DNA from: a virus
Taxonomy: Duplodnaviria; Caudoviricetes
IMG/VR virus record: IMGVR_UViG_3300009506_000027
Location: 1 to 62,689 of that record
Length of the DNA stretch: 62,689 bases
Direction: 5' to 3' (one strand)
Shown here: positions 918 through 62,689 of the stretch, piece by piece
Numbering within the stretch: position 1 is the first letter of the stretch
Layout of the letters: each line of letters opens with the position of its first letter
Program-made: the position numbers and the translations under genes
The notes under the pieces: model-generated
Databases searched by the model: none
Seen by the model: the letters and a program-made list of their open reading frames with translations, nothing else
Told to the model about the DNA's origin: nothing

Positions 918-991
918 CACTTTTCCCCTTCCATGATGAGGAACACGAGCACCACCAGGAACACGAGAAACCCCAGTCCAGCTTGAAGCAC
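917..991 (-). CDS. 24-aa hydrophobic peptide MLQAGLGFLVFLVVLVFLIMEGEK
   Basis: GTG overlaps the upstream TAG and TGA overlaps the downstream ATG; one TM-like stretch. Confidence 0.6.
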   Translation of the reverse strand: MLQAGLGFLVFLVVLVFLIMEGEK

Positions 992-1227
992 TAGACCCCC
1001 TTCCCCCTGGACGGACACCCCCGGCACCTCCCGCCGCACTTACAGACACCCGCCCGGATCCGGCCCCGAACCAATGGCCCCAGGAGATCCGGGCCCACCA
1101 AACGGGCCTGAGCCACTAGGTCTTCCTGGCACGGATCCGACCCGACCGAACCAAAAAGATCCAACTGCCCCAACGCCAACGCCCGGAGGAAGACCTCCCC
1201 ACCGTCCGAGCCTACCACCGGTTCCAC
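991..1227 (-). CDS. Hypothetical protein (78 aa, Cys-rich C-terminus)
   Basis: Fills the leftward operon and is coupled to its neighbours. Confidence 0.5.
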   Translation of the reverse strand: MEPVVGSDGGEVFLRALALGQLDLFGSVGSDPCQEDLVAQARLVGPDLLGPLVRGRIRAGVCKCGGRCRGCPSRGKGV

Positions 1228-3253: not shown

Positions 3254-3761
3254 GCTTCAGATTGAGAAGGTGGAGTGGCTGCTTCAGCCGAACGGTATGG
3301 CCGGGAGCGTGGAGGTAGACCACCATGGCGATCCAGAGTACCAGCACTTCATCGCCCAGGTGGGGCCGTTTGAGGAGGGCGCGAACGTGGTGATCCTGAG
3401 CCCAGAACAGGCCACTGAACTCCTCGACCTGCTGAGGTCCGATGGGGAGCCGTTGAACACCCTCGCCGCCGAAATCAACGAGATCAACGTTGGGAACGGC
3501 TGGAAGGTGGCTACGCCTGAATCATGGGACGATGAAAGGCATATCCCCACCCTCCTCTGTCTGATTCATTCGGAGGTTAGTGAGGCCCTGGAGGGGTTTC
3601 GCCACGGCGACCGCGAGAATGTAGCCGAGGAATTGGCCGATACGCTCATCCGGGTTCTCGACCTTGCCGGTGGCCTGGGCATCGACATGGACGGCGAAGT
3701 CACTTCAAAGCTCGCCAAGAATCGAGAAAGGGGGTTCCGTCATGGAGGAAAAGCGATCTAA
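3246..3761 (+). CDS. MazG-like NTP pyrophosphohydrolase domain protein
   Basis: ExxE...EExD motifs (LIHSEVSEALE...EELADTLIRVLD) and C-terminal KLAKNRERGFRHGGK. Confidence 0.8.
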   Translation: MSELQIEKVEWLLQPNGMAGSVEVDHHGDPEYQHFIAQVGPFEEGANVVILSPEQATELLDLLRSDGEPLNTLAAEINEINVGNGWKVATPESWDDERHIPTLLCLIHSEVSEALEGFRHGDRENVAEELADTLIRVLDLAGGLGIDMDGEVTSKLAKNRERGFRHGGKAI

Positions 3762-4281
3762 GGCTCAGCCCGAGGGGGAGCCGGTGGCGGAACGTCCCAT
3801 TGGCTACATCACGCCCTTGGATATGGCGCGGGTTTCGTCCATGGAGCCGAGCGTACCTTCCGTGAACATCTGGGCTGAACCCGATGATGGCGACCTCCCC
3901 CTCTACCTCCATCCCAAGCCGAGCCGGGAGCAAGGGGAGATGTGTGGGCCGCATGGAGTGTGTGAGTTCGCTGTTGTGGGTGCCGCGAACCACCCGCAAG
4001 CGTCTTTGGGCGATCTGGCACTCGACCGGGATGATGCACCCAAGGGTTCGGTAGTTGAGTATCAGATCAAATGTCAGGTCTGCCACCGAGACGGATTTCT
4101 TTTGCTCAATCAAGCACCACCGAGCCGGGAGCGGGAGGCGGCCCTAAGCATTGTCGCCCAAGCGATCATGGCGGCTTACACGAGTCACCACTTGCCCGAC
4201 GAGTTCAAGTCACTCGGAAAACGCGCCAGCGAAGCACTAGCCATCCTCGCCGGGAAGGAGGCCGACGATGGCAAAGAATGA
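3742..4281 (+). CDS. Hypothetical mosaic protein
   Basis: Probable ATG at 3742; PLYLHP motif and a CxxC. Confidence 0.65.
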   Translation: MEEKRSKAQPEGEPVAERPIGYITPLDMARVSSMEPSVPSVNIWAEPDDGDLPLYLHPKPSREQGEMCGPHGVCEFAVVGAANHPQASLGDLALDRDDAPKGSVVEYQIKCQVCHRDGFLLLNQAPPSREREAALSIVAQAIMAAYTSHHLPDEFKSLGKRASEALAILAGKEADDGKE

Positions 4282-4522
4282 TGGAGGACCGGCGTTTCCG
4301 TGCGGAGAATACACGGAGGGGCACCGTGAAGACAGCACCCCGATCAAACAGCCTAGGCACCACGGCATGACCCTGCGCCAGTGGTATGCGGGGTTGGCGA
4401 TGCAGGGGATGTTGGCAAATCCCACACTGTCAAAGAATTTTCTACTAGATGAACTGGCGCAGGATGCACTTGACATGGCCAACGCCATGCTGAAAGAGGA
4501 GGCCGACGATGGCGAAGTATGA
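4268..4522 (+). CDS. Conserved small phage protein (GGPAFP...GMTLRxxYAGxAMQG type)
   Basis: Recognisable motif that is widespread in phage early regions. Confidence 0.8.
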   Translation: MAKNDGGPAFPCGEYTEGHREDSTPIKQPRHHGMTLRQWYAGLAMQGMLANPTLSKNFLLDELAQDALDMANAMLKEEADDGEV

Positions 4523-10509: not shown

Positions 10510-11360
10510 GTCGCTGATTGAAAACTGGAATACAGGCCGCATGGGGTCTGTGAGGATATGCCGGGGCGACCCGGCGAAAGGGGATCGGTTTCCTGCGACC
10601 CCCCGCCTACGGGTCCAGCCATGTAAGCTCGCGCTGGTTGGCGTGGACACTTCCACGACTGACGCTTCCGCGAACCGGGAGATAAGCCCGAAGGAGGACC
10701 ACCCCGAGCAGTGGGCAACGCTGGCTGCGAAGGGTGGGGGAACGAGGGCCGACAGTGAACGAGTAGCGTGAGAGTTTGAGTCCCGATCAAGGACGAAGGC
10801 GATTACGAAGAACCGCACGGGCAAGGGTTGGGACACCCGATGGTCGTGTGGCCCGAGGAGTAGCGGCGACGTGAAACTCAGAGGGAGAGTGGCATTGACT
10901 GACTCAAAAGGTCAGGCACCCACCGGACGGGCTCTTTCTCGCAGGTTAACCAAGTGTGATTAGCTCAGTGGTAAGAGCAAAGCGGCGATAACGCTTAGGT
11001 CGCGGGTTCGACCCCCGCATCATACACCAAAAACGGAAAGACCCGTCCGGCACTGGAGACAAAAGTGGCTTAATCCCACGCCCTCCGGGGAACGTGGGGT
11101 GGGACAGACTCCCAAGGTCAGTCCTACTTGGTCGGAAGACGGAGGTAGCTCCTTAGCGGGAGCCCGCAGGCCGCAAGCCTGGCCCGAGTGTGAAGACCGA
11201 GTACATCCGGTGCGACAAGCCTAACGCCTGGCTTTCAAAACGGCAGTCATGGCCCATACCAGCCTCGCTGGTGGACAACGCGGGAACCCTACGGGTGGAG
11301 CCGGGGGATAATCCGACAAAAGGGGGACCAGAAAACGCCCATAGTCTCAGGGCGTTTTTT
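10510..11360 (+). ncRNA. GOLLD-like giant structured RNA with an embedded tRNA
   Basis: ~850 nt with no credible ORF; dense hairpins with GCGA and UACG tetraloops; 5' GTCGCTG pairs with CGGCGAC (10864-10870); GOLLD-like words GAGTAGC, GCTTAATCCC and TCAAAA; terminal hairpin AAAACGCCC-ATAGTCTCA-GGGCGTTTT. Confidence 0.75.
10954..11029 (+). tRNA. tRNA-Ile(GAT) with atypical anticodon loop (G32, C33)
   Basis: Acceptor GTGTGAT/ATCATAC, D stem GCTC/GAGC, anticodon stem AAGCG/CGCTT with loop GCGATAA, T arm GCGGG-TTCGACC-CCCGC, encoded ACCA; 76 nt. Confidence 0.85.
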
Positions 11361-27369: not shown

Positions 27370-27789
27370 ATGGCGGTAGACTATAATCCGGGGACCAACC
27401 CCTTCGACCCCCAGGACGATTTTCCGTCCACAGCCACCGGGGTCGTGCTTCCTGGTGGGGTAGACGCCGTGGAGGCCGACTACTCCTACATCGGAAGTGT
27501 GGACTTCAAAACAATCATCAACGAGTCGTGGGGTGGGAAGGAAAAAAGGACGGCCCAGGTCCCGGCGAGGCTTCGTTTCAAGATCATCTACGACCAGCTT
27601 ACGCCGACCGACGCCAACACTCTCTGGAACCATTACCTGGCGCAGGAGGGCCAGCTTTACGCCTTCAGCTATTTCGAGTATCTGAGCGAGGAGGAGTTCT
27701 CCGTCCGGTACAATATGCCGTCCATGGACAGGGAAACCTTCCTCTATGAGGCCGAGAAAACCGGCATCGAACTCATCCAGGTGTTGTAA
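27370..27789 (+). CDS. Distal tail protein
   Basis: After the tape measure; GKEKR...GQLYAF pattern. Confidence 0.65.
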   Translation: MAVDYNPGTNPFDPQDDFPSTATGVVLPGGVDAVEADYSYIGSVDFKTIINESWGGKEKRTAQVPARLRFKIIYDQLTPTDANTLWNHYLAQEGQLYAFSYFEYLSEEEFSVRYNMPSMDRETFLYEAEKTGIELIQVL

Positions 27790-30700
27790 TGCGAAGCCTC
27801 AGTAGCGCGATCCAGGCCATTCTCGCTGCGGACCAGCAGCGTCCGGTCACGACCGTCAAGATCACCTTGCGTGACGTGGGGGCGACGGAGATTTACGCGG
27901 CGACCCATGAGGTCACAATCTCCTCCCAGCCCTACACGGGAGATATGCTTGGGCTCCCCAGGATCGTGGTGAGCGAGGAATCCGGGATTGACCATATCGT
28001 TGTCCAACTCGCCAACGCAGACTGGTCGTACTCCTCATACCACAACCAGAACGACTTCGACGGCGCGACCGCAGAGGTCAACCAGTATTTTGCCACGGAC
28101 GCCGGATACACCACGTTTGAGGGTCCGGTCCTACTCTTTTCGGGTACGATCTTCCGGCCCGAGGTCAATGCTCAGGTATTGACGCTCAACGTTATGGCCG
28201 ATGCCCGGATGGCAAGGGGCGGGAGCCTCGGGCGCACGATCACAAACCACTGCGGGTGGTTGTTCGGGAGCACGGACTCCAACTGCGGCTACACCTACTC
28301 CGCGCAGGTGGCCTCCGGTGGATCCTACAATGTCGGTGACTGGGTGCCCCTTTCCGGATCGCCCGCTACGGACCAGGATGGTGTGGCGCTGACCGCCGAC
28401 ACCATGGCGAACGTACCAGCGAACTACATCAAGATCATGCGCGGAAGTCCAACGGGCACAGAGATTTACACGAATCTCTACATCGCGTCGTCCGATCTGG
28501 ATAACTCGCAGATCAAGTTGGGCTACAATTTGGAGGATGGCCCGCTTCCCCCTTGGTCGCTCTCTGCCGGGGACTATATCGTCTACGTTGGTTGCCCACG
28601 CGACACAATCCGCGAGTGTGCGCGGCGTTGGCAGTTCGGGTCAGCGACCCGCCAGCAGGATAAGTTCGGCGGCTTCGACTACAACCGAGACAAGATCCTC
28701 CCCTACGCCAACCCGAAGCAGGGTGTGGTGGCGCAGATGAGCGGGGTGATGGGGGAGATCGTCCCCATCCCCTACGGATCCCGGTGGACGACCCCCATGA
28801 TCCTCGGCCTCCACCACCGCGCACATGGAGGGAACGGGGCCTGGGCTGCGTGGAACTCCACCAGGGACGGCCCGTTCGTGGTCTGCATCATCGGTGAGGG
28901 CCCCCTGGATACTGGCATTGAAACGATTGAGGACGACATCATGCTGGACGGTGCGCTGATCCGCGCCACCCAGTATTACGTCAACCAGGACTGGGAGGAT
29001 AAGTTCGATGTGCAGACGGGGACCACCACACAGGCCCCCTCGGACTTCTTCCCCATGTGGGACACCGACCACAACCTGCCTGGGTTCTCCGCTCTCAGGA
29101 ACATCGGCTATTTCATCCAGGAGCTTCCCGAGAGCTACGACGTCCAGCCCCACATGACCAACGAGTTGTGGGATCACTTCAATCCACCGATCGGCAGCAC
29201 GGATTGGGGATCCCTGAAGCCAGCGTCCTCCTACTTCACCCGCACGCGGTATTGGTCGGTCGCCACCCCCGACATACAATGCAAATACAAGGGGAAGAAG
29301 GTTCAGAAGTACGTGTACTCCGGTGGCGTACCCACGACCGATGCTTACGAATACTCCCGCAACCCCGTCTGGCAGATCCTCGACGTCCTGACGGCGAGCT
29401 ACCGCACGGACGACAGCGATCAGTGGTCGGCTGGCCTTGCTACCAGTGAAGTAGACCTCGGCTCCTTTATCGACTGGGCCGACTACTGCGAGGAGCAGAT
29501 TGACGTCTACGACTACGACGGTAGCAGCATCACGGTTGACCGTTATGTGTCGGACTTCTACGTCAAGTCCAGCAAGAGGGGCGAGGTCCTGGAAGCCCTC
29601 CTCCTCGCCTGCCGTGGTGCCCTGGTGGCGCGGGACGGCAAGGTGGGGATCGTGCTGGACGCGCCGCTCGGCGGTACGGGCACCGTAACGGGCGCTACAA
29701 GCACTTCGATCACCGAAAGCACCCGTGACGGCCTGACGGACGCCTCGTGGCCCACAGGGGGCGTCAGCGGCCTTCTGACGGGCCGGTACCTGAAGATGCT
29801 TACTGGTGCTGCGGCTGGTGATGTTCGCACCATCACCTCCAACACCGGGACGACGATCAATGTCTCCGCGTCTTTCAGCACAACGCCCAGCCCCGGTGAC
29901 ACCTACGCCGTCTACGCCGTCGAACTGAATACGGACAACGTGGGTCCGATCCGGGTGGGACACAAGAAGCCCCTCTACGAACTCACGAATCAGGTGATCG
30001 CCAGCTACGAGTCCACCAAGGACCAGGGCAGGCAGGCCACCATCCCGATTCCAGACACCTACGAGGACGACCAGGGCGACTACCACTTCGACAAGTTCGG
30101 CCTGAACGAACGGAAGATTCAGATGGACGCCACGACGGAGTGGCAGCAGGCCGTTCGGAACGGATGGTATGAGCTTCGGAGGGAACTGGATCAGAACTTT
30201 GAGTTCATCATCGAAGGTCTGAATATCGAAGGGCTGGCGGTGGAGGTGGGGGACGTGGCCCTCATCAACCACGACATTAGCGGGATCACCAACGAAACGG
30301 TTCGGGTTACGAGGGTCGAGGACAACGGCAACGCCACCTACTCCCTGGTCTGCGAGCTTTTCCGGGACCATGTCTACCTGGATTTCCCCACCGACGATTT
30401 CGATTCGGTGGACATTTCCTCCAACCTGATCCCGCCCCACGGCGTTCCTTCCCATGTGACCGGCGTGACCATTGACCACTACGTCGAAATGGACAACGAG
30501 GCTCCTTGGGTCGTGGTAGAATGGGAGCAGCCTGGCTGGCCGTATCGCAACTGGTCTGTCGTGATTGAGTCCCGTTTCCAGAACCCGCTGACGGAGGTGT
30601 GGGGAGACTGGGAGGAGATCGGCACATCCATCACGACGAAGTTCACCTTCCGCTCCGCTCGCCTCGGCATGATTGAGGTACGTCCCACCTTGATGAGCGC

Positions 30701-33700
30701 GGTGGGCGTGAAGGCGAACGACCCCCTGGAGAACGGGACCTCCTCGGGCGGGAACACCTCTACCACGTTGAACGACACTACTCGTGCCTGGGACATCAAC
30801 GCCTGGGACGGGTGCTATGTGAGGATCACGAGCGGGACCGGGGACGCCAACGACCCGAAGGAGATCGTCAGCAACACAGCAACAGAACTGACGATCAACG
30901 GCACCTACCCGTGGAGCCCCACCCCTGACGGAACATCCGTTTACGAAATCTACGTGCCCTCGCCCGAGGTACAGGAACAGATCACCGCTGGGATTGGTTA
31001 CGGCTTCCCCTTCCTGGACGAAGACGATGGCGACCTTTTCCTGCATCCAGGATGGCAGCTTGGCCTTGCCTGCAAGTACCTGGACTCTGACACCGCTCCT
31101 ACGCTGAACGACGTAATCACGACAGGAACGATCCTCACGGCTGATGGAGCACCAGAGGACGGCACAAACGTCCACACGTTCACCACAGACGGGGAGATCC
31201 GGTACGTCGGTATCGTTTACTACCTGGACGAAGCCTGCACCCAGGGCGAGAGCGGCCTGACTGTCCTCCGGTATACCTACCACGAGGCAGACAACAACCC
31301 CAAGGTGGTGTGGTTCCCCTACATCCCGGACACTGTTGGATACGAGGGCGCACGGTTCGTCGCTACCGACGACAGCAGCCAGGTCAACTTCGGGTACGAC
31401 ATTATCACCGAGGGCGACCCGGATCCGACGTGGCCTGGCGACTACACCATGTCCGGGTTGGTTGCCGACCCCTATGTGGAGGACATTGAGGTACCCAAGC
31501 CCGCCGAGGGCGCGACCCGCAAGGTAATCCTGTTCAACTGCGTGGATGCTGACGGCAGAACCTTCCGGCCAACGGACGATCCTGGGCGCGTTTACATTGA
31601 CGGGAACTCGCGGCCCAGCGGCTACTGCACCTACGACATTGAGCCTGATTATACGCCCGTCATTACACCGCAGGCGATTGAAACGGATACGCAGTCCTGG
31701 CGCTTCCGGGTAAAGAAGACGAACATCGGCTCCGAAGCGTGGGACGCGATCTCCTGGGACGATCTGACCACCGGGGAATACTCGGGGAACACTTTCGAGC
31801 CCCAGTACATGACCTCCTACGTCCTCACCGAGACTGAATGTCTCAACGTGGAGGTCGTCTTCTTGAGAACGTCGGCAACGGACGACACCACCCAGTCGCT
31901 CTCCATGAAATCCGAGGCGATGCGGTTCACGGTCTACCCGTTCTTCGACACAGTTGTACCAACCGTACAAGCGTACCCAGGACAGGTCGGCTCCGTGGGG
32001 AACCTCTACCTGGTCATCAACGACCCCAAGGGGTTCACGGTCGAGACTGCGTTCAAGGCGGTAGAGGATTGGGACGGCGAGGACTTTGACGACCCGACCG
32101 ATGGAAGCTGGAACCGCGACACCATCGTACCCTACAACCTGACCGAGACAGTCAACCTGGGCGAGGACCACAACAGCCTGATCGCCTGGGCGGTGGGGTA
32201 TGACCTTGGCGACGGGAACGGCACCGTTTACATCCAGGGCTCCAACATCTTCGACCTCGACAAGATCCCGGTCGTGTTCGGTGCCCTGCACGTCAATGCT
32301 AATGGTGACGTCTACCTGTCCGCGAACGGCAGGGAGGACCTGAAGTCCATCCAGTATCTCACCTCCACCACCTCCATGCCTGGGGACGTGTCCGGTGGTA
32401 CGGTGGTGAATGGGCGGTCCACCAACACCCTGGTCTACTCTGGCCTCACGGATGGCTCTACGCTGTATATCCGTGTGCGTGGCTACAACCTCGTGGGTGG
32501 GGCTGTCGGTGGTGGTGATGAGTCAACCGAAGACTGGCTGGGCCAGGTCACGAATATGCACTCATCCCAGATTCCTGGGGTGAAGGTATACAAGTCGCAG
32601 AGCGGTTCTACCGGCACGCTGAACATCCTGGTGGACGACCCGGACGGGGTGCAGGTGGCGAGTTCGTTCCAGGACCAGTCTGGCGGCGGGGATTTCAGCC
32701 TTTCGTCCGACCCGACGACATGGTCCGGGTACGACAACTCCTCGCCCTATGACACCAGCGACACCGTGACCCTGGTGGACAAGCACACCAGCTTCATCGC
32801 CTGGGCCGTTGGGTACGACCTTGGTGGCGGGACTGAGTGGATCACCGGCACGGAAACATTTGATATTGATGAGAACCCGTCCGGGACCGGGACCGCTGTT
32901 GTGTACTCCAACGGCAACGCCTCCTGCGACCTGTTCGGTGATGAAGACACGGCGTCGTGGAAGGTGGCGGCATCCGTGACCTCCTTCCCCACCGCGACAA
33001 CGGTGAGGGCGCAGACCGCCGACGATGGGCAGAGCCTCACCGCGTCGGACATTGGCACGCTGGTATCGGCATCAAACGGTGACACCATCTACTACTCGGC
33101 CTTCCCGTACTCCTCCACCGGAGGCGGCGGGACCGAGGGTGCGATGGTGAATTTCATCGGGAACTACTTCGACACCGACACGCTGCCGACCGATCCGGTT
33201 GCCCCGAAGGCGTTCGTGGTACCCAGCGTATCGGGCTCCACCGGCACCTTGGATCTGACGGTGCGGGACGAATACCTGTCCGTTACGGCTATCGAAAAGC
33301 GAACGAAGCAGGGCAGCGGCGCGTGGAGTTCGTGGAGCAGCCTGACCGGGGGCACGGGGACCATCGGTGTAGACGAAGACCTCACACGCTCACAGACCGT
33401 CACGATTGAGGAGAAACACAACTCTGAAATCGGTATCAGGATCGCCTGGACCGATGAACTCAGCGCCACGCGGTACACCTACTTCAGCCAGACCTATGAC
33501 CTGAACGTCATCCCCTCCGTGGTTTGCGGACTTTCCCTGACGCTGTCGAAGGTGTACCTCGCGTGGATCGGTGACGATGACCTGGCCTCCATCACCTACA
33601 AGACGTCCACCTCTGCCATGCCCGTGGACGTATCTGGCGGGACGACGGTGGACGGGCGCACGGGGGACGAGCAAGACCTCGGCACCCTGAACCGTGGCGA

Positions 33701-35705
33701 AATCATGTACGTCCGGGTGCGCGGCTACTCTGCCGTTAGCGGTGGGGGCACGGCGTCTGCTGAAGACTGGACGGGGATGATCCGGCGCGACTTCACGCTC
33801 ATCCCGACCGTGCAGGTGGTGGCGTCGCAGTCCGGTACCACCGGGACGGTAACTTTGAATATCGAGGACCCGGATTCAAAGATGAACGCCACATCTTTTG
33901 AAACCGGGATTTCTCCAGACGCCAATCCAGCCAACTGGTCCGGGTACGATAACTCCGATCCCTATGGCACCACCCAGAACATCACGATTGAGGAAAAGCA
34001 CCCCACGGTGATCCACTGGGGGGTCCGCTACGACCTCGGCCTCGGTGATGGGAACGTCTGGATTACGGGCTCCCATACCTTCGACATTGACACGATCCCG
34101 AGTGTCACGGCAGAGCTTCAGCAGGTGGGGAACTATCTCTACCTGTCGTGGAACGGCGACGAAGACGTCGGCTCCATCAAGTACCTGGGGAGCACCGGGA
34201 GTATGCCTACCGAGGCAAACCTCGACGCATCAGGTACTTATAACAATAACAGGGCGGGCCGCATCACGCTCTACACGGGTACGTTCTACGAGGGTAAGGA
34301 GTATTACGTTCGCCTGCGGGCCTACTCCGGTGCGAGCGGGGCCGGGGACCAGTCGGCGGAAGACGTTCAGGTTTCTGCGGCGCACTCCATTTCCGGCCCA
34401 CCTCTGGTCAAGGTCATCGCCACCCAGAGCGGCACCACGGGGACGCTGACCATCACCGTGGACGACCCGCTCCTGCGGGTGAACGCCACCGCTTTCGAGC
34501 CCATCGCTGGGGGCGGGGCCTTCAGCCCGAACTCGGACCCAGCAAGCTGGAGCAACTACGACAACTCCTCGCCATATACCTACTCGGACACGGTAGACAT
34601 TAATCCGAAGCACGGGAGCGTGATCTGGTGGGGGGTCAGGTGGGGGCCGACCAACGACTCGACCTACAAGTGGATTACGGGATCCCACACCTTCGACGCT
34701 GACCTCCAGGCAGAGATCAACTCCATGTCCCTGGATGTGGACGAGAACGGATACGCGGACGTGTCCGTCATCGGTGACGAAGACTGCGACAATATTTACG
34801 TGCGCGTGGGGGTCGGGTCGGCACCGACAGACCCCACGAATGGATCCTATCACGGCACCTTCTCCGGCAACAACGGGGTCGCCACAACTTCTGTGGCGGT
34901 GTCTGCTGGCGATCAAATCTACATCAAGGCCAGGGGCTACAACGGGTCTGACCCAGGGCCAGTGAAGCAACTGGTTGTTAAGTGGGTGGCTACTCCCATC
35001 GTGTCAGTCGAAGTCACTTTTGACGATGACGGGTACGCGATCGTTTCTGCCACGGCTGGCGACGACGCGACCTACATCTACTACAACGCGGACATTGGCT
35101 CTGACCCAGGAACCCCCACGAGTTCGGTCTATGACGGCTCAATCTCCGGTAGCTCTGGGAGCCACACCAGCACCACGATCCAGGCCGACATGGGTGAGGA
35201 GGTCTGGGTCAACATTCGGGCCTACGCTGGTACGGTCGCTGGCCCCGTGTTCGGGATCATCAAGGCCCGTCGCGGCGTGGGGACGGTATCGAAGACGCAG
35301 TATTTCCAGGCTACTGGGATCATCGGGCAAAGCTCGGGTGTGGTGGAGACTGACGGCTACCTCGCCGCCACAAGCACATCCTCTACGGAGGTGAAGGGCG
35401 GCATCACGATCCCGCAGGGCGTAGTGATTACCGACTTCGGTGCCAGGTTGTACCGGGGAGGAGCCTCGGACGCCGCCAGCGCCTCCCTCCTGGCCGGTCC
35501 CTATGGTGCGCTTTGGTATGTGATTGCCGCCGCCACCGCCACCGGAACCGGGTGGACAACGCCGTATGACACCGCCAACTATACTGTGACCTCTGCGGCG
35601 ATTTCATTGAAGCTAGTGTTTGACGCGAACACCAGTGGCGACGATGTAAGGTGTGACTACATCTGGATCACCTACGACGCATCGGACGTGGACAAGACCC
35701 TCTAG
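27789..35705 (+). CDS. Giant tail-tip protein (hub plus gpJ-like central fibre plus repeated Ig/FN3-like modules), 2638 aa
   Basis: CGWLFG...C...CPR...C...FGGF hub motif, VPIPYG, GEGP, SRNPVW, VEVGDV; five internal ~200-aa repeats. Confidence 0.85.
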   Translation: MRSLSSAIQAILAADQQRPVTTVKITLRDVGATEIYAATHEVTISSQPYTGDMLGLPRIVVSEESGIDHIVVQLANADWSYSSYHNQNDFDGATAEVNQYFATDAGYTTFEGPVLLFSGTIFRPEVNAQVLTLNVMADARMARGGSLGRTITNHCGWLFGSTDSNCGYTYSAQVASGGSYNVGDWVPLSGSPATDQDGVALTADTMANVPANYIKIMRGSPTGTEIYTNLYIASSDLDNSQIKLGYNLEDGPLPPWSLSAGDYIVYVGCPRDTIRECARRWQFGSATRQQDKFGGFDYNRDKILPYANPKQGVVAQMSGVMGEIVPIPYGSRWTTPMILGLHHRAHGGNGAWAAWNSTRDGPFVVCIIGEGPLDTGIETIEDDIMLDGALIRATQYYVNQDWEDKFDVQTGTTTQAPSDFFPMWDTDHNLPGFSALRNIGYFIQELPESYDVQPHMTNELWDHFNPPIGSTDWGSLKPASSYFTRTRYWSVATPDIQCKYKGKKVQKYVYSGGVPTTDAYEYSRNPVWQILDVLTASYRTDDSDQWSAGLATSEVDLGSFIDWADYCEEQIDVYDYDGSSITVDRYVSDFYVKSSKRGEVLEALLLACRGALVARDGKVGIVLDAPLGGTGTVTGATSTSITESTRDGLTDASWPTGGVSGLLTGRYLKMLTGAAAGDVRTITSNTGTTINVSASFSTTPSPGDTYAVYAVELNTDNVGPIRVGHKKPLYELTNQVIASYESTKDQGRQATIPIPDTYEDDQGDYHFDKFGLNERKIQMDATTEWQQAVRNGWYELRRELDQNFEFIIEGLNIEGLAVEVGDVALINHDISGITNETVRVTRVEDNGNATYSLVCELFRDHVYLDFPTDDFDSVDISSNLIPPHGVPSHVTGVTIDHYVEMDNEAPWVVVEWEQPGWPYRNWSVVIESRFQNPLTEVWGDWEEIGTSITTKFTFRSARLGMIEVRPTLMSAVGVKANDPLENGTSSGGNTSTTLNDTTRAWDINAWDGCYVRITSGTGDANDPKEIVSNTATELTINGTYPWSPTPDGTSVYEIYVPSPEVQEQITAGIGYGFPFLDEDDGDLFLHPGWQLGLACKYLDSDTAPTLNDVITTGTILTADGAPEDGTNVHTFTTDGEIRYVGIVYYLDEACTQGESGLTVLRYTYHEADNNPKVVWFPYIPDTVGYEGARFVATDDSSQVNFGYDIITEGDPDPTWPGDYTMSGLVADPYVEDIEVPKPAEGATRKVILFNCVDADGRTFRPTDDPGRVYIDGNSRPSGYCTYDIEPDYTPVITPQAIETDTQSWRFRVKKTNIGSEAWDAISWDDLTTGEYSGNTFEPQYMTSYVLTETECLNVEVVFLRTSATDDTTQSLSMKSEAMRFTVYPFFDTVVPTVQAYPGQVGSVGNLYLVINDPKGFTVETAFKAVEDWDGEDFDDPTDGSWNRDTIVPYNLTETVNLGEDHNSLIAWAVGYDLGDGNGTVYIQGSNIFDLDKIPVVFGALHVNANGDVYLSANGREDLKSIQYLTSTTSMPGDVSGGTVVNGRSTNTLVYSGLTDGSTLYIRVRGYNLVGGAVGGGDESTEDWLGQVTNMHSSQIPGVKVYKSQSGSTGTLNILVDDPDGVQVASSFQDQSGGGDFSLSSDPTTWSGYDNSSPYDTSDTVTLVDKHTSFIAWAVGYDLGGGTEWITGTETFDIDENPSGTGTAVVYSNGNASCDLFGDEDTASWKVAASVTSFPTATTVRAQTADDGQSLTASDIGTLVSASNGDTIYYSAFPYSSTGGGGTEGAMVNFIGNYFDTDTLPTDPVAPKAFVVPSVSGSTGTLDLTVRDEYLSVTAIEKRTKQGSGAWSSWSSLTGGTGTIGVDEDLTRSQTVTIEEKHNSEIGIRIAWTDELSATRYTYFSQTYDLNVIPSVVCGLSLTLSKVYLAWIGDDDLASITYKTSTSAMPVDVSGGTTVDGRTGDEQDLGTLNRGEIMYVRVRGYSAVSGGGTASAEDWTGMIRRDFTLIPTVQVVASQSGTTGTVTLNIEDPDSKMNATSFETGISPDANPANWSGYDNSDPYGTTQNITIEEKHPTVIHWGVRYDLGLGDGNVWITGSHTFDIDTIPSVTAELQQVGNYLYLSWNGDEDVGSIKYLGSTGSMPTEANLDASGTYNNNRAGRITLYTGTFYEGKEYYVRLRAYSGASGAGDQSAEDVQVSAAHSISGPPLVKVIATQSGTTGTLTITVDDPLLRVNATAFEPIAGGGAFSPNSDPASWSNYDNSSPYTYSDTVDINPKHGSVIWWGVRWGPTNDSTYKWITGSHTFDADLQAEINSMSLDVDENGYADVSVIGDEDCDNIYVRVGVGSAPTDPTNGSYHGTFSGNNGVATTSVAVSAGDQIYIKARGYNGSDPGPVKQLVVKWVATPIVSVEVTFDDDGYAIVSATAGDDATYIYYNADIGSDPGTPTSSVYDGSISGSSGSHTSTTIQADMGEEVWVNIRAYAGTVAGPVFGIIKARRGVGTVSKTQYFQATGIIGQSSGVVETDGYLAATSTSSTEVKGGITIPQGVVITDFGARLYRGGASDAASASLLAGPYGALWYVIAAATATGTGWTTPYDTANYTVTSAAISLKLVFDANTSGDDVRCDYIWITYDASDVDKTL

Positions 35706-51876: not shown

Positions 51877-52242
51877 ATGGAGGACTTCGGCTTCATCAAA
51901 ATAAGCCGTAAGTTCTTCGCCAGCGAAATGTGGAAAGAAGGACGCTGCCTATCCAAGGCAGAGGCTTGGTTGGACCTTCTTTCCAGTGCAACCCACGAGT
52001 CCACGGTGCGCATGGTCGCTGGCTTCCCTGTCGAGCTTCGGCGCGGAGAATTGGTAGCCTCCGACTCATACCTGATGAGGCGGTGGCGCTGGAGCAGGAA
52101 CAAGGTTCGCTTGTTTCTTAAACATCTGGAGCTTGAAGAACGCATCCAGCTAATCGACCACAAGGACGCCAACCAGACGGGCAAGCTCATCTACATCATC
52201 AACTACAACCGATACCAGGGATGGGAGGGTGATATTGTTTGA
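51877..52242 (+). CDS. Replication initiator, N-terminal winged-helix domain only
   Basis: GFIKISRK...EAWLDLL...RGEL...RWRWSRNKVRLFL...INYNRYQ. Confidence 0.8.
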   Translation: MEDFGFIKISRKFFASEMWKEGRCLSKAEAWLDLLSSATHESTVRMVAGFPVELRRGELVASDSYLMRRWRWSRNKVRLFLKHLELEERIQLIDHKDANQTGKLIYIINYNRYQGWEGDIV

Positions 52243-53572
52243 CCAACCACAGCACGAGGAGCGGGCCGAGTTCGTAGTCCTGGCCTCGGTGCTTCATGGA
52301 AGTGAGCCCCTGGGGGAGGCGATCGAACGGCTCAGTCCCCACGATTTCAACTGGAGACAGAACCGGCTGGTTTTCGAGGCCGTCCTGGGGTTGTTTGAAA
52401 AGAACCATCCGGTGGATCCGGTCAGCATCATGGAGGAGCTTCGGGCTCGCGGCACCCTGGAGGACGTGGGCGCGGACTACATCGGGGAATTGGTGGAGGG
52501 CGTCCCCCACACCGATCACATCGAACATCACTGTAAGCTCGTGCGGGATGCCTCGGCCAGAAGGAAACTGGCAGGTGTATGTCAGGCCACCTTGACCAAA
52601 CTCGGGGCGCACGGGGAAGGCACCACCGAGGAGATCCTGGAGGCAGCGGAGCGAGGGATCTTCGACATTTCCCACAACGTAGCCTCGGGTCAGCCGGAAC
52701 GCCTATCGGACATTCTCAACGCCACCATGGACGTAATCAGGAGGAGGAAGGCGTCAGGCGAGGAGACTTTCGGCATCCGATCCGGGTTTCCTCTACTAGA
52801 CCACACCACTGGGGGGTTCCACGACGGGGAGCTTTACATCCTTGCCGCCCGACCTTCGATGGGGAAGACGTCCCTCGCCATCAACTTCATTGACTACATC
52901 GGCGTGACGAAGGAGCTACCTACCCTGATGTTCTCGCTGGAAATGACCAAGCAGGACGTGGCCCTTCGCGTGACCTCCCTCCGTACTGGGGTTCCGATGC
53001 GAAACTTCAGGGCCACCAAGTTCCTGAACCCCGACGACCTCCTCAGTATCTCCCGACAGCAGCGTTTGATTGACACATCCCCCATCGTCATTGACGACCA
53101 GCCAGGTGCCTCCATCCTCGCCATGCGGGCGAAGGCCAGGAGACAGATGATCCGGGAGCCCTTCAAGGTCCTGGTGATTGACTACCTCCAGTTGATGAAC
53201 GGCGGCTCCGTGCGCCATGTCAACAGGAATGAGGAGATCAGCTATATCTCCCGCAACCTGAAGGACCTCGCCCGCGAGCTTGGCGTGCCGGTGATTGCCC
53301 TGAGCCAGTTGAGCAGGGCCCCGGAGCAGCGCCCCGACCGGAGGCCCATGCTTTCCGACCTCCGGGACTCGGGGTCCATCGAACAGGACGCGGACTGTGT
53401 GATGTTCCTCTACCGTCCGGAATACTACTTCGGTGAGGTGCATGAAGGCAGGAACATCGCCGGGAAAACTGAGGTGAACGTGGCGAAGAACCGGAATGGC
53501 CCCACGGCGACGGTCAACTTCACCTTCAGAAAAGAAACCATGAAGTTCTACGAGGAGGCGATGGAGAGATAA
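52229..53572 (+). CDS. dnaB: Replicative DNA helicase
   Basis: AARPSMGKT, FSLEM, IDYLQL, LSQLSR, SDLRDSGSIEQDAD and KNRNGPT. Confidence 0.97.
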   Translation: MILFDQPQHEERAEFVVLASVLHGSEPLGEAIERLSPHDFNWRQNRLVFEAVLGLFEKNHPVDPVSIMEELRARGTLEDVGADYIGELVEGVPHTDHIEHHCKLVRDASARRKLAGVCQATLTKLGAHGEGTTEEILEAAERGIFDISHNVASGQPERLSDILNATMDVIRRRKASGEETFGIRSGFPLLDHTTGGFHDGELYILAARPSMGKTSLAINFIDYIGVTKELPTLMFSLEMTKQDVALRVTSLRTGVPMRNFRATKFLNPDDLLSISRQQRLIDTSPIVIDDQPGASILAMRAKARRQMIREPFKVLVIDYLQLMNGGSVRHVNRNEEISYISRNLKDLARELGVPVIALSQLSRAPEQRPDRRPMLSDLRDSGSIEQDADCVMFLYRPEYYFGEVHEGRNIAGKTEVNVAKNRNGPTATVNFTFRKETMKFYEEAMER

Positions 53573-54078: not shown

Positions 54079-54087
54079 CAAAAGGGT

Positions 54088-54118
54088 GGCCCTGACGCTA
54101 GGGGGTGACGTCAGGGCC
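54088..54118. terminator. Hairpin between the convergent transcription units
   Basis: GGCCCTGACG...CGTCAGGGCC 10-bp inverted repeat; no clear U-tract on the + strand. Confidence 0.45.
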
Positions 54119-54161
54119 GGTCGGCTAGTGGGGACTCAGGGGGAAGGCCGACAGTTACAAT

Positions 54162-55322
54162 TTAGGCGAGCCTAAACTTTGCGTCAACGCTGGTGTCCTG
54201 GTACAATCGGGCCACCGCACGCTCCACTGCCCCGACCCTTTCGTCCTCTGCCTTCTTCCCGCGCCGATGAAACTTGCTGTCGATTACGTGGCCCGGAGTC
54301 ACGCCCAGGATGAGCGAGATCGTGAACGGATGCGCTCCGTTTTCTGCCATGTGGATCGCCCCCATCTGTCGTAGCACGGAGGGGTTGTACTCCAGGTCCT
54401 TGTAGATCCACGACAGCATCTTCTGGGACATGATCTTCCCAGGGAGCCCGCCCTCGTTGAAGCTGTGAAGTACCTCCCGTACTAGATCCATCGGTAGCGG
54501 CACCACCCGCTCGGTGTTCCTGGACATTCGCCTCGTGTAGGGTTCCCCGGCGACGTAGACGTGCCCGACGCCCGACTTCCCCCACTGAGCGATGGGGTGC
54601 GTTTCCTGCCAGGTACGCACGAACCAGGACTCATCCACCGCTGCGTAGATTTCGTGGCTGCTGGCCTCGGAGTGCCCCACAATCTCCATCGCCTGCTCCA
54701 GGGTGGCCCCGGTGTTCAGGAGCCAGGTGACGCAGGTGTGACGCAGCCCGTGGGCGCTGGCCTCGGGAGCCACGGCCTTGAGGTGCCGGTCAATCAGGTA
54801 CCGCACCCCCCTTTCGGACACAGCGCTGCCCGTGGGAGACTGGAAGAGGGGGCGACTGACGTGGCGCTTGCCCACCGTACTGGTCCGCTTCAGGTGGGAG
54901 CCCTCGCCAGCCGCAAGGCGCTCAACTCGTTCCTGGAGGGGCTGTGGAACATAGATTTCACGCCTGCCTCCCCCCTTCCCTTGAACGGAAATGAATAGCC
55001 GCCCATCGCGGGGGTGAATGTCACCCAGCCGGATCCTACGAAGCTCCACCTGCCTGAGCCCACAGACCAGCCCCATTTCAACCAACACCTGGTCACGCAG
55101 ATTCCCGGCAACGGCTACTGAGTCCAGCAGGGCCTTCGCCTGTTCGTAGGACAACCCCCTGCTGTCGGTTGTCCCAGGCAACTGCGGGGGTGTGGGACGC
55201 ACCGAGTCCCAGGCCAGCCTGTGGATCTCACCGGCCCCCAGACCGGCGTAGCTGAGAATGGACATGGCGCGACGCACGATGTTCGTGTCGCTGAAGATTT
55301 TCTCCTTGAGTGAGCCCCCCAT
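54162..55322 (-). CDS. Tyrosine recombinase with atypical architecture
   Basis: Catalytic set GLRQVEL, GKG, HGLRH, GH and Y; no core-binding domain evident; degenerate second domain. Confidence 0.88.
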   Translation of the reverse strand: MGGSLKEKIFSDTNIVRRAMSILSYAGLGAGEIHRLAWDSVRPTPPQLPGTTDSRGLSYEQAKALLDSVAVAGNLRDQVLVEMGLVCGLRQVELRRIRLGDIHPRDGRLFISVQGKGGGRREIYVPQPLQERVERLAAGEGSHLKRTSTVGKRHVSRPLFQSPTGSAVSERGVRYLIDRHLKAVAPEASAHGLRHTCVTWLLNTGATLEQAMEIVGHSEASSHEIYAAVDESWFVRTWQETHPIAQWGKSGVGHVYVAGEPYTRRMSRNTERVVPLPMDLVREVLHSFNEGGLPGKIMSQKMLSWIYKDLEYNPSVLRQMGAIHMAENGAHPFTISLILGVTPGHVIDSKFHRRGKKAEDERVGAVERAVARLYQDTSVDAKFRLA

Positions 55323-55353
55323 AAGTTTCCCCCCTGGTTAAGGTCGTGTTATA

Positions 55354-55382
55354 ACGATAACTAAAGAGGGGGTGTGTGTCAA
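55354..55382 (-). promoter_or_regulatory. Recombinase promoter
   Basis: TTGACA-17 bp-TATCGT on the minus strand. Confidence 0.6.
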
Positions 55383-55723
55383 TCCCGCCTCCACGGGTCC
55401 GTACCGCCAGGTCCATGCACGGGACAATCCCTGGGAGGCTCCGACGCATCATGGTCGTCGGTGTAGATCCGACAGTCGGTCGGACAGGTACAGGCCATGC
55501 GTGCCCATTTCTCGTAGTCCTCGGAGGCACGCCACCGTTGGTAGTTCTTTGAATCCCTCGGCATATCCTTCGGGTGGACGTTGGTGGCCGTGCCCTTGGC
55601 CTTCAGCGCCTTCAGGCGTTGGTTATAGTCAGGTGCCAGCTTCCTCTTCGGCTGCTGTTCCTTCGCACGCTCCTCCCGGAGGCGCTGTTGCAGGCGCAGC
55701 ATCTTTCGTCTACGGCTTCCCAT
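55379..55723 (-). CDS. Basic protein with C-terminal Cys/His cluster
   Basis: CTCP..C...CPVHG; TAATG coupling. Confidence 0.7.
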   Translation of the reverse strand: MGSRRRKMLRLQQRLREERAKEQQPKRKLAPDYNQRLKALKAKGTATNVHPKDMPRDSKNYQRWRASEDYEKWARMACTCPTDCRIYTDDHDASEPPRDCPVHGPGGTDPWRRD

Positions 55724-56322
55724 TAGGACAGGTCCCCCAGGCTGTATCCAAGTGCCTTCAACTCGTCGTCGTGGTAGCGATTGATCCAGTCAATCGCACC
55801 GGATGTGAAATAGGACGCCTTGTGTTCGGTCGGCTTCCCCGGCGTCACGTTTTTGCGCTGCATTTCCCCCTCCTGCAACGGCATGAGCCCCTGGGAGAAG
55901 AAGAATAGCGCGAGGTCATCCTCCAAGTTCTCATAGCGGAGGACTCTCTTCATCCCAGGGAGGCGTTCCCAGTAGAACCTGAACATCCTTCCCCGGTTGG
56001 GGAAATATTTGATCCCCCTGACCATGAAGTCGTTCAGGAACTCCACCGAAACCCGGTCGCCCCCGCCCTCGGTCCACTGCCACCAATGGGAAAGGATGGC
56101 GTCGAAAGGGTTTCGCACGGTGAAGACGTAGTAGAAGTCCTCCGGCCTAGAAATCCACCAACGCCTGTAATCATGGCTTTTGTAGGGCCTGAGAACCCAC
56201 GGGCTGTCGTGGTGGCCCCCCAGGGGGTCAAAGCCCCTCGCACGGAGTAGGGGTACGGTGGCGGTGGACCCAACGCACTGGTGGTGCAGGAATACGATGC
56301 GCTTGTCGAAGTGAATGTCCAT
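55723..56322 (-). CDS. Sulfotransferase family 2-like protein (degenerate 5'-PSB loop)
   Basis: IVFLH..., VRNPFD..LS, LRYENLEDD and D...LGY motifs. Confidence 0.75.
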   Translation of the reverse strand: MDIHFDKRIVFLHHQCVGSTATVPLLRARGFDPLGGHHDSPWVLRPYKSHDYRRWWISRPEDFYYVFTVRNPFDAILSHWWQWTEGGGDRVSVEFLNDFMVRGIKYFPNRGRMFRFYWERLPGMKRVLRYENLEDDLALFFFSQGLMPLQEGEMQRKNVTPGKPTEHKASYFTSGAIDWINRYHDDELKALGYSLGDLS

Positions 56323-56531
56323 TACTCGCCGCGCTCCCTCCTCCACTGCCAGAGCTTCCGCTGGTGGTTCTTGAAGCGCTTGTACTCACGGACCCTCCCC
56401 AGCCACCGGAGGGCCATGCGGAAGTCTCGTTTCGCCTCACGGTCCATGGATGACTTGTCGGCGTGGTGTAGGGCCCGTTCGATAGCGCGGAGGACACGTT
56501 TACTGGTGTGTGGGCGTCGGATCTTTTCCAT
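56322..56531 (-). CDS. Small basic protein
   Basis: MEKIRRPH...; coupled between the two sulfotransferase-like genes. Confidence 0.6.
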   Translation of the reverse strand: MEKIRRPHTSKRVLRAIERALHHADKSSMDREAKRDFRMALRWLGRVREYKRFKNHQRKLWQWRRERGE

Positions 56532-56533
56532 AG

Positions 56534-57136
56534 CTAGACCCTGTATCCCAACACCAGCATTTCGTGGCGGTAGCGTGAGGCCAGGAGGTCTAGGGCCTCG
56601 GGGGTATAGTGTTCCTTCCATGTGCCCGCAGGCTTCCCTACGGTCATGTGCTTCGGGTCGCGCTGAAGCTCCCCCATGGACGCGGGCTCCAGATCGAAGG
56701 TCTTCAGAAACTCCACCGTGTCCATCCTGAGCAATTCGTACCGGAGGGTGACGGCGTTCGGGCAGTCCCACACGAAACGCCACATTCTCCGGTTGCACGG
56801 GAACAGTCTGGTCTGATGCTTGGGAAACTCCTCCAGGAACACGGGGCAGACCTTTTCCTGATTGGCCTCGGGAAACTGATGCTTGTACTGAGCCCACCAG
56901 GTCAGCATGGCGTCCCCATGGTGCCGTACCATATAGGCGAAGGACCACTGGGAGGGGTCCGAGTCCCACCAGGCCCGCATCTGGGGGCTTTCGATGTAGG
57001 TGTGGAGATTGCGCGGCCCCTCGTGCCGGGAGCCGATCATCTTGAACCCACGCTTGAACAGCAGGTTCTCCCAGAAGCGCGACGCTGCTGTGGCGTGGAG
57101 GGGAAAGGCGATCTTCTTTTCGACGTGGATGAGCAT
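56534..57136 (-). CDS. Second, more divergent sulfotransferase-like protein
   Basis: MLIHVEKKIAF, VRHHGD, LRYE and WKEHYTPE...RYRHEM..LGY; TGATG coupling. Confidence 0.7.
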   Translation of the reverse strand: MLIHVEKKIAFPLHATAASRFWENLLFKRGFKMIGSRHEGPRNLHTYIESPQMRAWWDSDPSQWSFAYMVRHHGDAMLTWWAQYKHQFPEANQEKVCPVFLEEFPKHQTRLFPCNRRMWRFVWDCPNAVTLRYELLRMDTVEFLKTFDLEPASMGELQRDPKHMTVGKPAGTWKEHYTPEALDLLASRYRHEMLVLGYRV

Positions 57137-57351
57137 CAGGACTGGCCCCCCGCCCCACCGTCCTGAACCGTGACGGGAGGGCGGGAAGTCGCGGTGCCCT
57201 GTACCTTCAGGTTCATCAACATCAACTTGACGAAATTCTTGGTAAGCTCCAATTCGTAGCGGACGCCCAGGTTGTTGCAGGCGGGGCATCCAGCGCCATC
57301 GCACGCCTCACACTGTTTCGGCGTGACCTTCATATCTCCAGGAAGAAGCAT
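57136..57351 (-). CDS. Small protein with DnaJ-type CxxCxGxG zinc finger
   Basis: CEACDGAGCPACNNLG. Confidence 0.65.
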   Translation of the reverse strand: MLLPGDMKVTPKQCEACDGAGCPACNNLGVRYELELTKNFVKLMLMNLKVQGTATSRPPVTVQDGGAGGQS

Positions 57352-62120: not shown

Positions 62121-62426
62121 CTACTCGCTTTCTGCCCCTTGGGGGCTATGGGTCCTGGGGGTCCTCCCAATGGGGTAGGGGGATGTATAAGCCAGGACGA
62201 TAAATTCCTCCAGGTCGCTGCGCTCGCAGTCCTGGATCTCAAAATTCTCAAAAAGGAAGAAGTTGGTGATTAGCTCGCTCACCACGGGATCAGCAGCGGA
62301 GGGAATCTTGCGCCCCTTCTTGTTGCAGCAGTCCTTCACGGCGACCGGGGCACGGTTGAAGAACAGAACCTCAACGCGCCCCAGGTCCACCACCGCCGCA
62401 CTCTCTGTCAGTATGAAGAGTCTCAC
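62121..62426 (-). CDS. Hypothetical protein
   Basis: GGGAGG RBS before GTG. Confidence 0.55.
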   Translation of the reverse strand: MRLFILTESAAVVDLGRVEVLFFNRAPVAVKDCCNKKGRKIPSAADPVVSELITNFFLFENFEIQDCERSDLEEFIVLAYTSPYPIGRTPRTHSPQGAESE

Positions 62427-62479
62427 TCGCTCGCCTCCCGTCCAGGGTTGACACTACAAAACAACTGGTTACAGTAATA

Positions 62480-62508
62480 ACGATAACGAAACGTGAACAA
62501 GGCGTCAA
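62480..62508 (-). promoter_or_regulatory. Leftward promoter of the right arm
   Basis: TTGACG-17 bp-TATCGT on the minus strand. Confidence 0.6.
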
Positions 62509-62525
62509 GTCGATAACGGGCCGAC

Positions 62526-62685
62526 ACTGTAAACGATTGCCCGTACTAGCTTTATGAATCGGTGAGGCTGTTTGAAAAATCGGAAACCGCGCCCGTACTG
62601 GAAACCCGTGGGAATCCGAGTCCAGGAATGTGAGCCCGTACTGTGAACGATCGCCCGTACTGACTGTGAACGATCGCCCGTACTG
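62526..62685. repeat. GCCCGTACT-core repeat array with a 23-bp tandem unit
   Basis: Core at 62539, 62591, 62634, 62653 and 62676; ACTGTGAACGATCGCCCGTACTG x2 at 62640-62685; variant at 62526-62548. Confidence 0.9.
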
Positions 62686-62689
62686 ACTT

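Follow-up and report, generated by a model that had tools for sequence, protein, structure and literature searches.

What kind of enzyme is encoded by a gene in which an intact tyrosine recombinase catalytic domain seems to lie inside a degenerate copy of its own fold, and is such a layout real? The question is raised by IMG/VR record IMGVR_UViG_3300009506_000027, which comes from a tailed phage and is covered in full by the 62,689 bases analysed here (hereafter the window), with 60% G+C, a linear class and a CheckV completeness of 100. Phage genes of the window include those for a large terminase, a major head protein, a RecE-like exonuclease and a RuvC-like resolvase. Tyrosine recombinases combine a core-binding (CB) and a catalytic (CAT) domain, sometimes with an arm-binding (AB) domain. 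In a first-pass annotation of this DNA, one gene had been read as an active catalytic domain nested in a degenerate copy of the same fold. Profile alignment of the flanking pieces (E 5.1e-10 once joined) upholds this reading, and the nested protein is best regarded as a tyrosine recombinase with a new variant of domain architecture, whose layout is real and conserved. The gene and its pieces are as follows:

54162 to 55322, minus strand: whole gene of the nested tyrosine recombinase (P0001, 386 amino acids), with its TAA stop at 54162-54164
55188 to 55322, minus strand: N-terminal piece of the outer domain (residues 1-45), three helices and strand beta1; it resembles Box I, but has Gly29 at the Arg I position (hhalign, model DSSP and residue table)
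55158 to 55187, minus strand: linker into the insert (residues 46-55, PQLPGTTDSR), where the model's predicted local distance difference test (pLDDT) dips to 82 (block 41-50) and 70 (block 51-60)
54582 to 55157, minus strand: inner intact catalytic domain (residues 56-247), with R90, K116, H191, R194, H217 and Y226
54165 to 54581, minus strand: C-terminal piece of the outer domain (residues 248-386), with beta2, a lengthened Arg-rich hairpin, beta3 and helices

The inner domain had been placed at residues ~56-235 and described as intact. Consistent with this, Pfam PF00589 matched residues 58-231 in one stretch (E 3e-22; 79.6 bits against a curated cut-off of 27.1), and the catalytic-domain fold of this superfamily was recognised. 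The pentad R-K-H-R-H/W and the tyrosine nucleophile by which tyrosine recombinases are defined are complete in the inner domain alone, where all six residues are invariant in 17 of the 17 alignment rows that cover them. Compared by hhalign with a profile of 143 Xer-type proteins, the domain aligned at E 2e-40; PHROGs assigned the protein to the integrases (phrog_1, E 1.2e-30), and archaeal XerA and XerD were the nearest solved sequences. The best NCBIfam rows, XerC TIGR02224 (85.5) and XerD TIGR02225 (75.6), fell far below their respective cut-offs of 335.15 and 329.6. Judged from these sequence features, the gene product would be a working phage tyrosine site-specific recombinase.

The N-terminal SAM-like core-binding domain of the simple CB+CAT build was not found, in line with what had first been noted. 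The core-binding families PF02899, PF13495 and PF13102 gave no match in P0001 at E up to 10, and PF00589 was the sole family on this protein, as well as the sole precomputed family in 12 of 12 family rows. Only five further codons are open upstream of the start of the open reading frame (ORF), and the N-terminus therefore cannot be longer.

What, then, are the two pieces that flank the inner domain? A family alignment of 18 sequences was compared by hhalign with a reference of 143 ordinary Xer-type recombinases of 285-340 amino acids, both obtained from protein searches. The N part (residues 1-55) was placed on reference columns 132-182, that is, on the first helices and Box I (E 4.4e-4), a better fit than its next-best placement on the core-binding region (E 0.19). 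The C part (residues 248-386) fell on columns 184-277, from the beta-hairpin to the HxxR helix, with a probability of 92% (E 5.8e-7). Once joined, the flanks (residues 1-45 plus 248-386) gave the continuous alignment that the first-pass annotation had proposed to look for, unbroken over columns 133-277 (probability 96.6%). Their join sits exactly between beta1 and beta2, and the insertion point of the inner domain is thus the beta1-beta2 turn. The joined-flank score of 71.3 compares with a mean of 14.2 and a maximum of 20.8 in 40 column shuffles, and the N-part score of 26.8 with a shuffle maximum of 17.7 (40 shuffles). For the C part, which scored 49.3, 99 of 100 column shuffles were far lower, with a maximum of 18.3 in one batch of 60.

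The predicted structure points in the same direction. In the full-length model (pLDDT 82.9), the inner domain runs through helices 91-96 and 99-101 and strands 102-105, 108-114 and 120-125 before further helices; the outer domain shows the same order, with helices 30-34 and 38-40, strand 41-42, the insert, strands 252-257 and 272-277, and then helices. The latter include an HxxR-like helix (P314, R318) and a long last helix at residues 356-374. When residues 248-386 alone were submitted to the ESM Atlas, PF00589 clusters made up 21 of 30 feature matches (top score 0.96), and all 10 listed structure rows were recombinase or integrase clusters aligned to residues 249-351, with template modelling (TM) scores of 0.49-0.57; the aligned part was PF00589 in 9 of these 10, each under the bar for naming a family. 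The top-ranked chains of a wide structural search were recombinases aligned in register. A five-sequence profile of the C part had XerA as its sole match in the PDB (E 1.1), and PF00589 was the sole Pfam family on the five members, in two of the five (best E 0.057). The sequence-profile evidence for the outer fold is strong; the structural evidence agrees but is weak.

Is the outer copy dead, and has it been kept? Box I had been described as lacking its Arg, and indeed Gly, Ser or Thr occupies the Arg I position, with Arg in 0 of 16 rows. Lys occurs at the Lys position in 5 of 18 rows. The loss of both catalytic His was borne out, His being found in 0 of 18 rows at the His II position (mostly Pro) as well as at the His III position, whereas the loss of the Tyr, claimed alongside them, is the usual state only: the position is mostly Phe, and Tyr is kept in 3 of 18 rows. 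Arg II (R318), by contrast, is kept throughout (18 of 18 rows). With low confidence, a more permissive alignment points to the further deletion of ~12 residues comprising His III and the Tyr helix. The outer domain has nine invariant residues (G27, G259, R272, V274, R318, H331, P332, G340 and R353), and its beta2-beta3 hairpin, seven residues over the usual length, carries a conserved PYxRRMxRGxER motif. Over 16 full-length rows, mean pairwise identity reached 0.459 in the inner domain, 0.385 in the C part and 0.339 in the N part. By these alignments, the outer copy has lost its nucleophile and most of the pentad, yet is kept under selection and conserved almost like the inner one. Outer and inner profiles share 19% identity (E 2.6e-6, hhalign), and G+C content at third codon positions is uniform over the gene pieces (0.77-0.82); because identity is so low and composition so even, the insertion event must be old.

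The same architecture, which the first-pass annotation had suggested searching for, recurs in ~17 metagenomic phage relatives. Eleven of them, from JGI, ENA and Logan sources, share 38-73% identity with the query, and ten of these cover 90-100% of it. An exhaustive search of 1.84 billion representatives added P0091-P0094 and P0102, as well as P0098, a protein of 139 amino acids that consists of the C part only. Homologous ORFs of 376-393 amino acids are intact in four other viral contigs (L001, L002, L003 and the distant L063). Recurrence of the layout in ~17 relatives drawn from independent sources rules out a misassembly, one of the outcomes that had been named as fatal to the nested reading. 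Outside this set, nothing comparable was seen. Of 62 matching isolate phage records, none reached 80% of the query (maximum coverage 61%), and at 54 of 54 confirmed prokaryotic loci the match was confined to residues 10-255, at low identity. The same build was not found among BFVD viral structure predictions, where the best TM score by query was 0.41 and long alignments had a root-mean-square deviation of ~20, and a metagenome contig scan returned two weak inner-domain matches only. In word-index-limited searches, a stand-alone outer domain gave no match among shorter proteins, and the four near-length proteins retrieved with the outer domain were all family members.

How does this build compare with known recombinases? 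Literature searches, which did not extend to paper supplements, found no precedent for a natural nested recombinase. In the available part of the survey of Smyshlyaev et al. 2021, only CB+CAT and AB+CB+CAT builds are described, and the words 'tandem', 'duplicat' and 'inactive' do not occur there (PMC8138268). Simple Xer types (XerA, XerC/XerD, XerH and Brujita-type integrases) differ from the nested protein, which has no core-binding domain, scores far under the XerC/XerD cut-offs and has its catalytic domain embedded in a second, dead copy of the fold. Closer in one respect are tandem double recombinases of ~530-870 amino acids (P0095-P0131), with two full Phage_integrase stretches; each of the four looked at (P0095, P0096, P0097 and P0116) has two PF00589 stretches, and a SAM-like domain passes on its own in one or more stretches of both P0095 and P0096. 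Like the nested protein, these doubles hold two recombinase catalytic domains in one chain, but they are arranged head to tail (CB-CAT-CB-CAT) and not nested, with SAM-like core-binding domains kept and both catalytic domains strong in Pfam. Engineered recombinases are known to tolerate domain insertion, as illustrated by zinc-finger insertions in Cre-type enzymes, according to the part of the article available (PMC11631766), and by split Cre domain-insertion profiling, from the accessible part of a preprint (bioRxiv 10.1101/2023.05.26.542511). Those insertions are man-made and place a foreign domain into a recombinase, whereas here a natural recombinase domain lies inside a recombinase-like domain.

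What the dead copy might do is suggested by how such enzymes are controlled. On/off switching between neighbouring protomers is central to the tyrosine recombinase mechanism and to its use in genome engineering. In Cre and XerA, mutual control of the protomers is exerted by docking in trans of the C-terminal helix (helix N), and half-of-the-sites activity occurs in Cre/loxP and XerA. A two-copy prediction of the nested protein scored 0.63 in three of three runs, against 0.00 for the best control, with at least 83% of contacts shared between runs and a partner pLDDT of at least 84; among proteins of solved structure, 20 of 30 pairs and 1 of 23 single chains attain the mark used for this score. 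The predicted interface is reciprocal and sets residues 353-374 in the outer domain of one chain against residues 59-66, 85-87, 108, 122-128 and 197-214 of the other chain's active domain. As in Cre and XerA, the C-terminal helix would pack on the catalytic domain of the other chain near the helix after HxxR; here, however, the donated helix would come from a dead domain, and active and inactive units would alternate by construction instead of through changes of conformation. The best alignments of the monomer model with XerA and Brujita cover residues 50 to 374, which suggests that the region of helix 356-374 can also take the place of the Xer C-terminal helix in cis.

Taken together, we lean towards a domain-in-domain recombinase in which the outer domain replaces the core-binding domain and the neighbouring protomer, and which acts as a homodimer with two of its four catalytic-fold domains active. 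The dead outer domain would supply what the core-binding domain and the neighbouring protomer normally give. Extra DNA contacts would come from the retained R318 (Arg II), R272 and R353 and from the lengthened Arg-rich beta-hairpin, and helix 356-374 would dock on the active domain of a second chain, the working unit being a homodimer of two active and two dead domains. We infer that the outer domain binds DNA and that the protein recombines it; the biological reaction would be, as a guess, integration or the resolution of genome multimers. If this is true, a catalytic domain wrapped in a conserved dead copy is a new solution to DNA clamping and partner control, a ready-made model for the asymmetric 'one active, one structural' recombinase pairs that engineers build by hand, and a clean case of domain-in-domain evolution with retention of a pseudo-enzyme.

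Several points weigh against this picture. One of the 100 C-part shuffles, in a batch of 40, reached 133.2 against the Xer profile, and the cause was not found. The packing of the N and C pieces as one domain rests on profile alignment and the order of secondary structure rather than on measured contacts. The dimer prediction was run on a purpose-built alignment of 12 rows, and solved Xer or Cre assemblies remembered by the predictor may account for its pass. A search of 185,579 prokaryotic species, with one genome each, turned up neither a family member nor an integrated copy, although the hosts are perhaps unsampled, and scans of 10 neighbouring ORFs with Pfam and PHROGs recognised no repressor or excisionase; in view of these negative findings, a role as integrase is without independent support. 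Finally, no recombination site was identified in the window, where a spacer, a repeat inside the gene and the repeats at 62526-62689 were considered (see below).

Could the two domains of one chain instead share a single recombination site? An unlikely variant, though one worth weighing, holds that a complete asymmetric core site is occupied by a single chain, whose inner domain would take one arm and whose dead outer domain would take the other. Two such chains, paired as a homodimer, would then form a ring alternating active, dead, active and dead domains by docking of the C-terminal helices, only one strand pair would be exchanged, and the Holliday junction would be finished by the phage RuvC-like resolvase or by replication. 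This half-of-the-sites enzyme finds support in the Arg II and the Arg-rich hairpin conserved in the dead domain and in the predicted dimer, where the outer C-terminal helix of either chain docks reciprocally on the active domain of its partner. The genes around the recombinase also favour it: its convergent neighbour in the window is the RuvC-like gene (phrog_159, E 5.6e-20), and in L001-L003 the recombinase gene is convergent with an ORF of 168-179 amino acids at the resolvase position, where DNA similarity to the window continues. However, L001-L003 are close, syntenic and not independent, their 168-179-residue ORFs are placed by position and not by family, and the distant L063 has other replication genes adjacent and no RuvC-like gene; there, from translations read by eye, the recombinase gene comes after tail-fibre-like and small genes and points towards further replication-region genes. 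Nor was an asymmetric core site found in the window. Were it true, such an active-plus-dummy chain would have the half-of-the-sites state built in permanently, whereas ordinary tyrosine recombinases pass through it only briefly. The single-chain pseudo-dimer cutting one strand only, as proposed in the first-pass annotation, is compatible with these observations.

It is quite improbable that the flanks are an unrelated DNA-binding or oligomerisation module, their likeness to the fold being due to chance or convergence, and the protein an ordinary catalytic domain with extensions. Pfam detected no second domain in the window's recombinase, and Foldseek returned nothing at E <= 0.001 for the isolated C part, the top rows being Fis-like helix-turn-helix proteins (E 0.075). 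The seamless hhalign join of the flanks, well over its shuffle controls, argues against such a module, as do the recombinase and integrase clusters returned by the Atlas searches of residues 248-386 and the recombinases, aligned in register, at the top of the wide structural search. If the protein were merely an integrase with an odd DNA-binding module, its interest would be mainly structural and evolutionary.

A third possibility, raised in part by the first-pass annotation, is that the protein acts chiefly as a regulator. MrpR/YopR of SPbeta are recombinase-fold phage repressors that have lost catalysis, as reported in the part of the article available (PMC10516654). Together with SroF of phi3T, they are among the structural rows and resemble the proposed outer domain in that a dead catalytic fold is kept as a DNA binder; they differ in that each stands alone and has an N-terminal domain but lacks an active domain as partner, whereas here the dead domain is split around an active one. 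A repressor of this type (PDB 8a0a, 8bpz and 9rd5 show that dead recombinase-fold repressors exist) would bind a palindrome-like motif in its own promoter without recombination. The promoter announced for the gene was recovered upstream of it:

55354 to 55382, minus strand: promoter-like site TTGACA-17-TATCGT, with motif TTATAACGATAAC (55349-55361) overlapping the -10 hexamer

TTGAC occurs at a similar distance before the start codon in three of three relatives, and a palindrome-like GTTAT..ATAAC element lies over the -10 region in L001 and L003. The motif overlapping the -10 hexamer is common to two promoter regions, which would suit a repressor. Nevertheless, a pure regulator is very improbable: the invariance of the six inner catalytic residues would not be expected without catalysis, PF22823 (MrpR_C_cat) was not matched, and loss of the nucleophile and catalytic residues from the whole protein, as in MrpR/YopR/SroF, was not found, only the outer domain being degenerate. 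As a separate observation, the 13-mers TTATAACGATAAC (55349-55361) and TAATAACGATAAC (62475-62487), at two promoter-like regions, are near-identical, and a weaker third copy lies at 34238 (three matches against 0.17 expected); from its sequence and positions, the 13-mer may be a shared operator.

A telomere resolvase of a linear plasmid-prophage, another function first suggested for this gene, is extremely improbable. The linear class in IMG/VR would agree with it, but 'linear' there means merely that no end repeats were found, and the inner domain is Xer-like. Moreover, positions 1-1400 and 62268-62689 of the window correspond to L062 115-4616, so that the window ends lie ~2.8 kb apart in a contiguous stretch of G003. 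No inverted repeat with arms longer than 17 nt, at a spacing of up to 60, occurs anywhere in the window, from which the ~2.8 kb are absent. The left-end ORF at 3-1049 (minus strand) is cut by the contig edge, and the record probably lacks up to ~2.8 kb despite its completeness estimate of 100.

An assembly chimera or a decaying pseudogene, for which nothing speaks beyond the odd layout, deserves next to no credence in view of eleven full-length or near full-length relatives, six further representatives and the four ORFs intact elsewhere.

As to its setting, the recombinase gene lies on the border of the replication module and has a predicted promoter and terminator of its own. The ORF at 52229-53572, which precedes the resolvase gene, is replicative-helicase-like by reading alone. 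None of the 10 neighbouring ORFs had a Pfam match, and their PHROG matches were the RuvC-like one and a weak sulfotransferase-like one only. The latter belongs to a 207-residue ORF at 55723-56346 (E 6.9e-4), which, together with the 256-residue ORF at 56534-57304 (both on the minus strand), looks like a pair of paralogues by eye, the two sharing an 83% DNA repeat (56026/56696) and similar motifs at the N-terminus and in the centre. Two hairpins were found downstream of the recombinase gene:

54088 to 54118, minus strand: hairpin GGCCCTGACG-N11-CGTCAGGGCC with a T-run after it on the recombinase strand, probably an intrinsic terminator
54120 to 54152, strand not assigned: second hairpin, GTCGGC ... 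GCCGAC, whose loop is C-rich on the recombinase strand

Both arms of the first hairpin are present in L003 and in L001, where the recombinase strand has two G.T wobble positions; the L002 stretch ends inside this hairpin. The second hairpin is present in three of three relatives.

Where, then, might the enzyme act? The spacer at 54079-54161, put forward as a candidate recombination site, holds these two recurrent hairpins and, given the G.T wobble in L001 and the T-run, looks like transcription terminators instead. An inverted repeat inside the gene (55125-55164, 17-nt arms, 76% complementary) was considered as an attachment (att) site and taken as chance, being kept in none of the three relatives. 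Neither a tRNA nor an att-like site was found adjoining the recombinase gene. Elsewhere, the window carries a tRNA-Ile(GAT) gene at 10954-11029, and relative L001 a tRNA-Gln(TTG) at 346-437.

The repeats at 62526-62689 were also considered as recombinase sites and set aside; they were read as more origin-like, and no link to the recombinase was shown. There, GCCCGTACTG occurs in four exact copies and one near copy within 150 bp on the plus strand, partly as 23-bp tandem units, and the contig terminates inside the array. Its window-wide count of 13 was reached by none of 100 shuffles, and the exact motif was found in none of the three relatives. In G003 (L062, C1), positions 3400-4370 form a non-coding, repeat-rich region of ~950 bp with 11-bp tandem repeats (CCGAGTTTGGT), four 18-nt iteron-like repeats and three copies of a GCCCGTACTG-related motif, which from this content looks like an origin. 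Further away in the window, an ORF of 2,638 amino acids at 27789-35705 comes after ORFs of 938 and 139 amino acids that follow the head genes.
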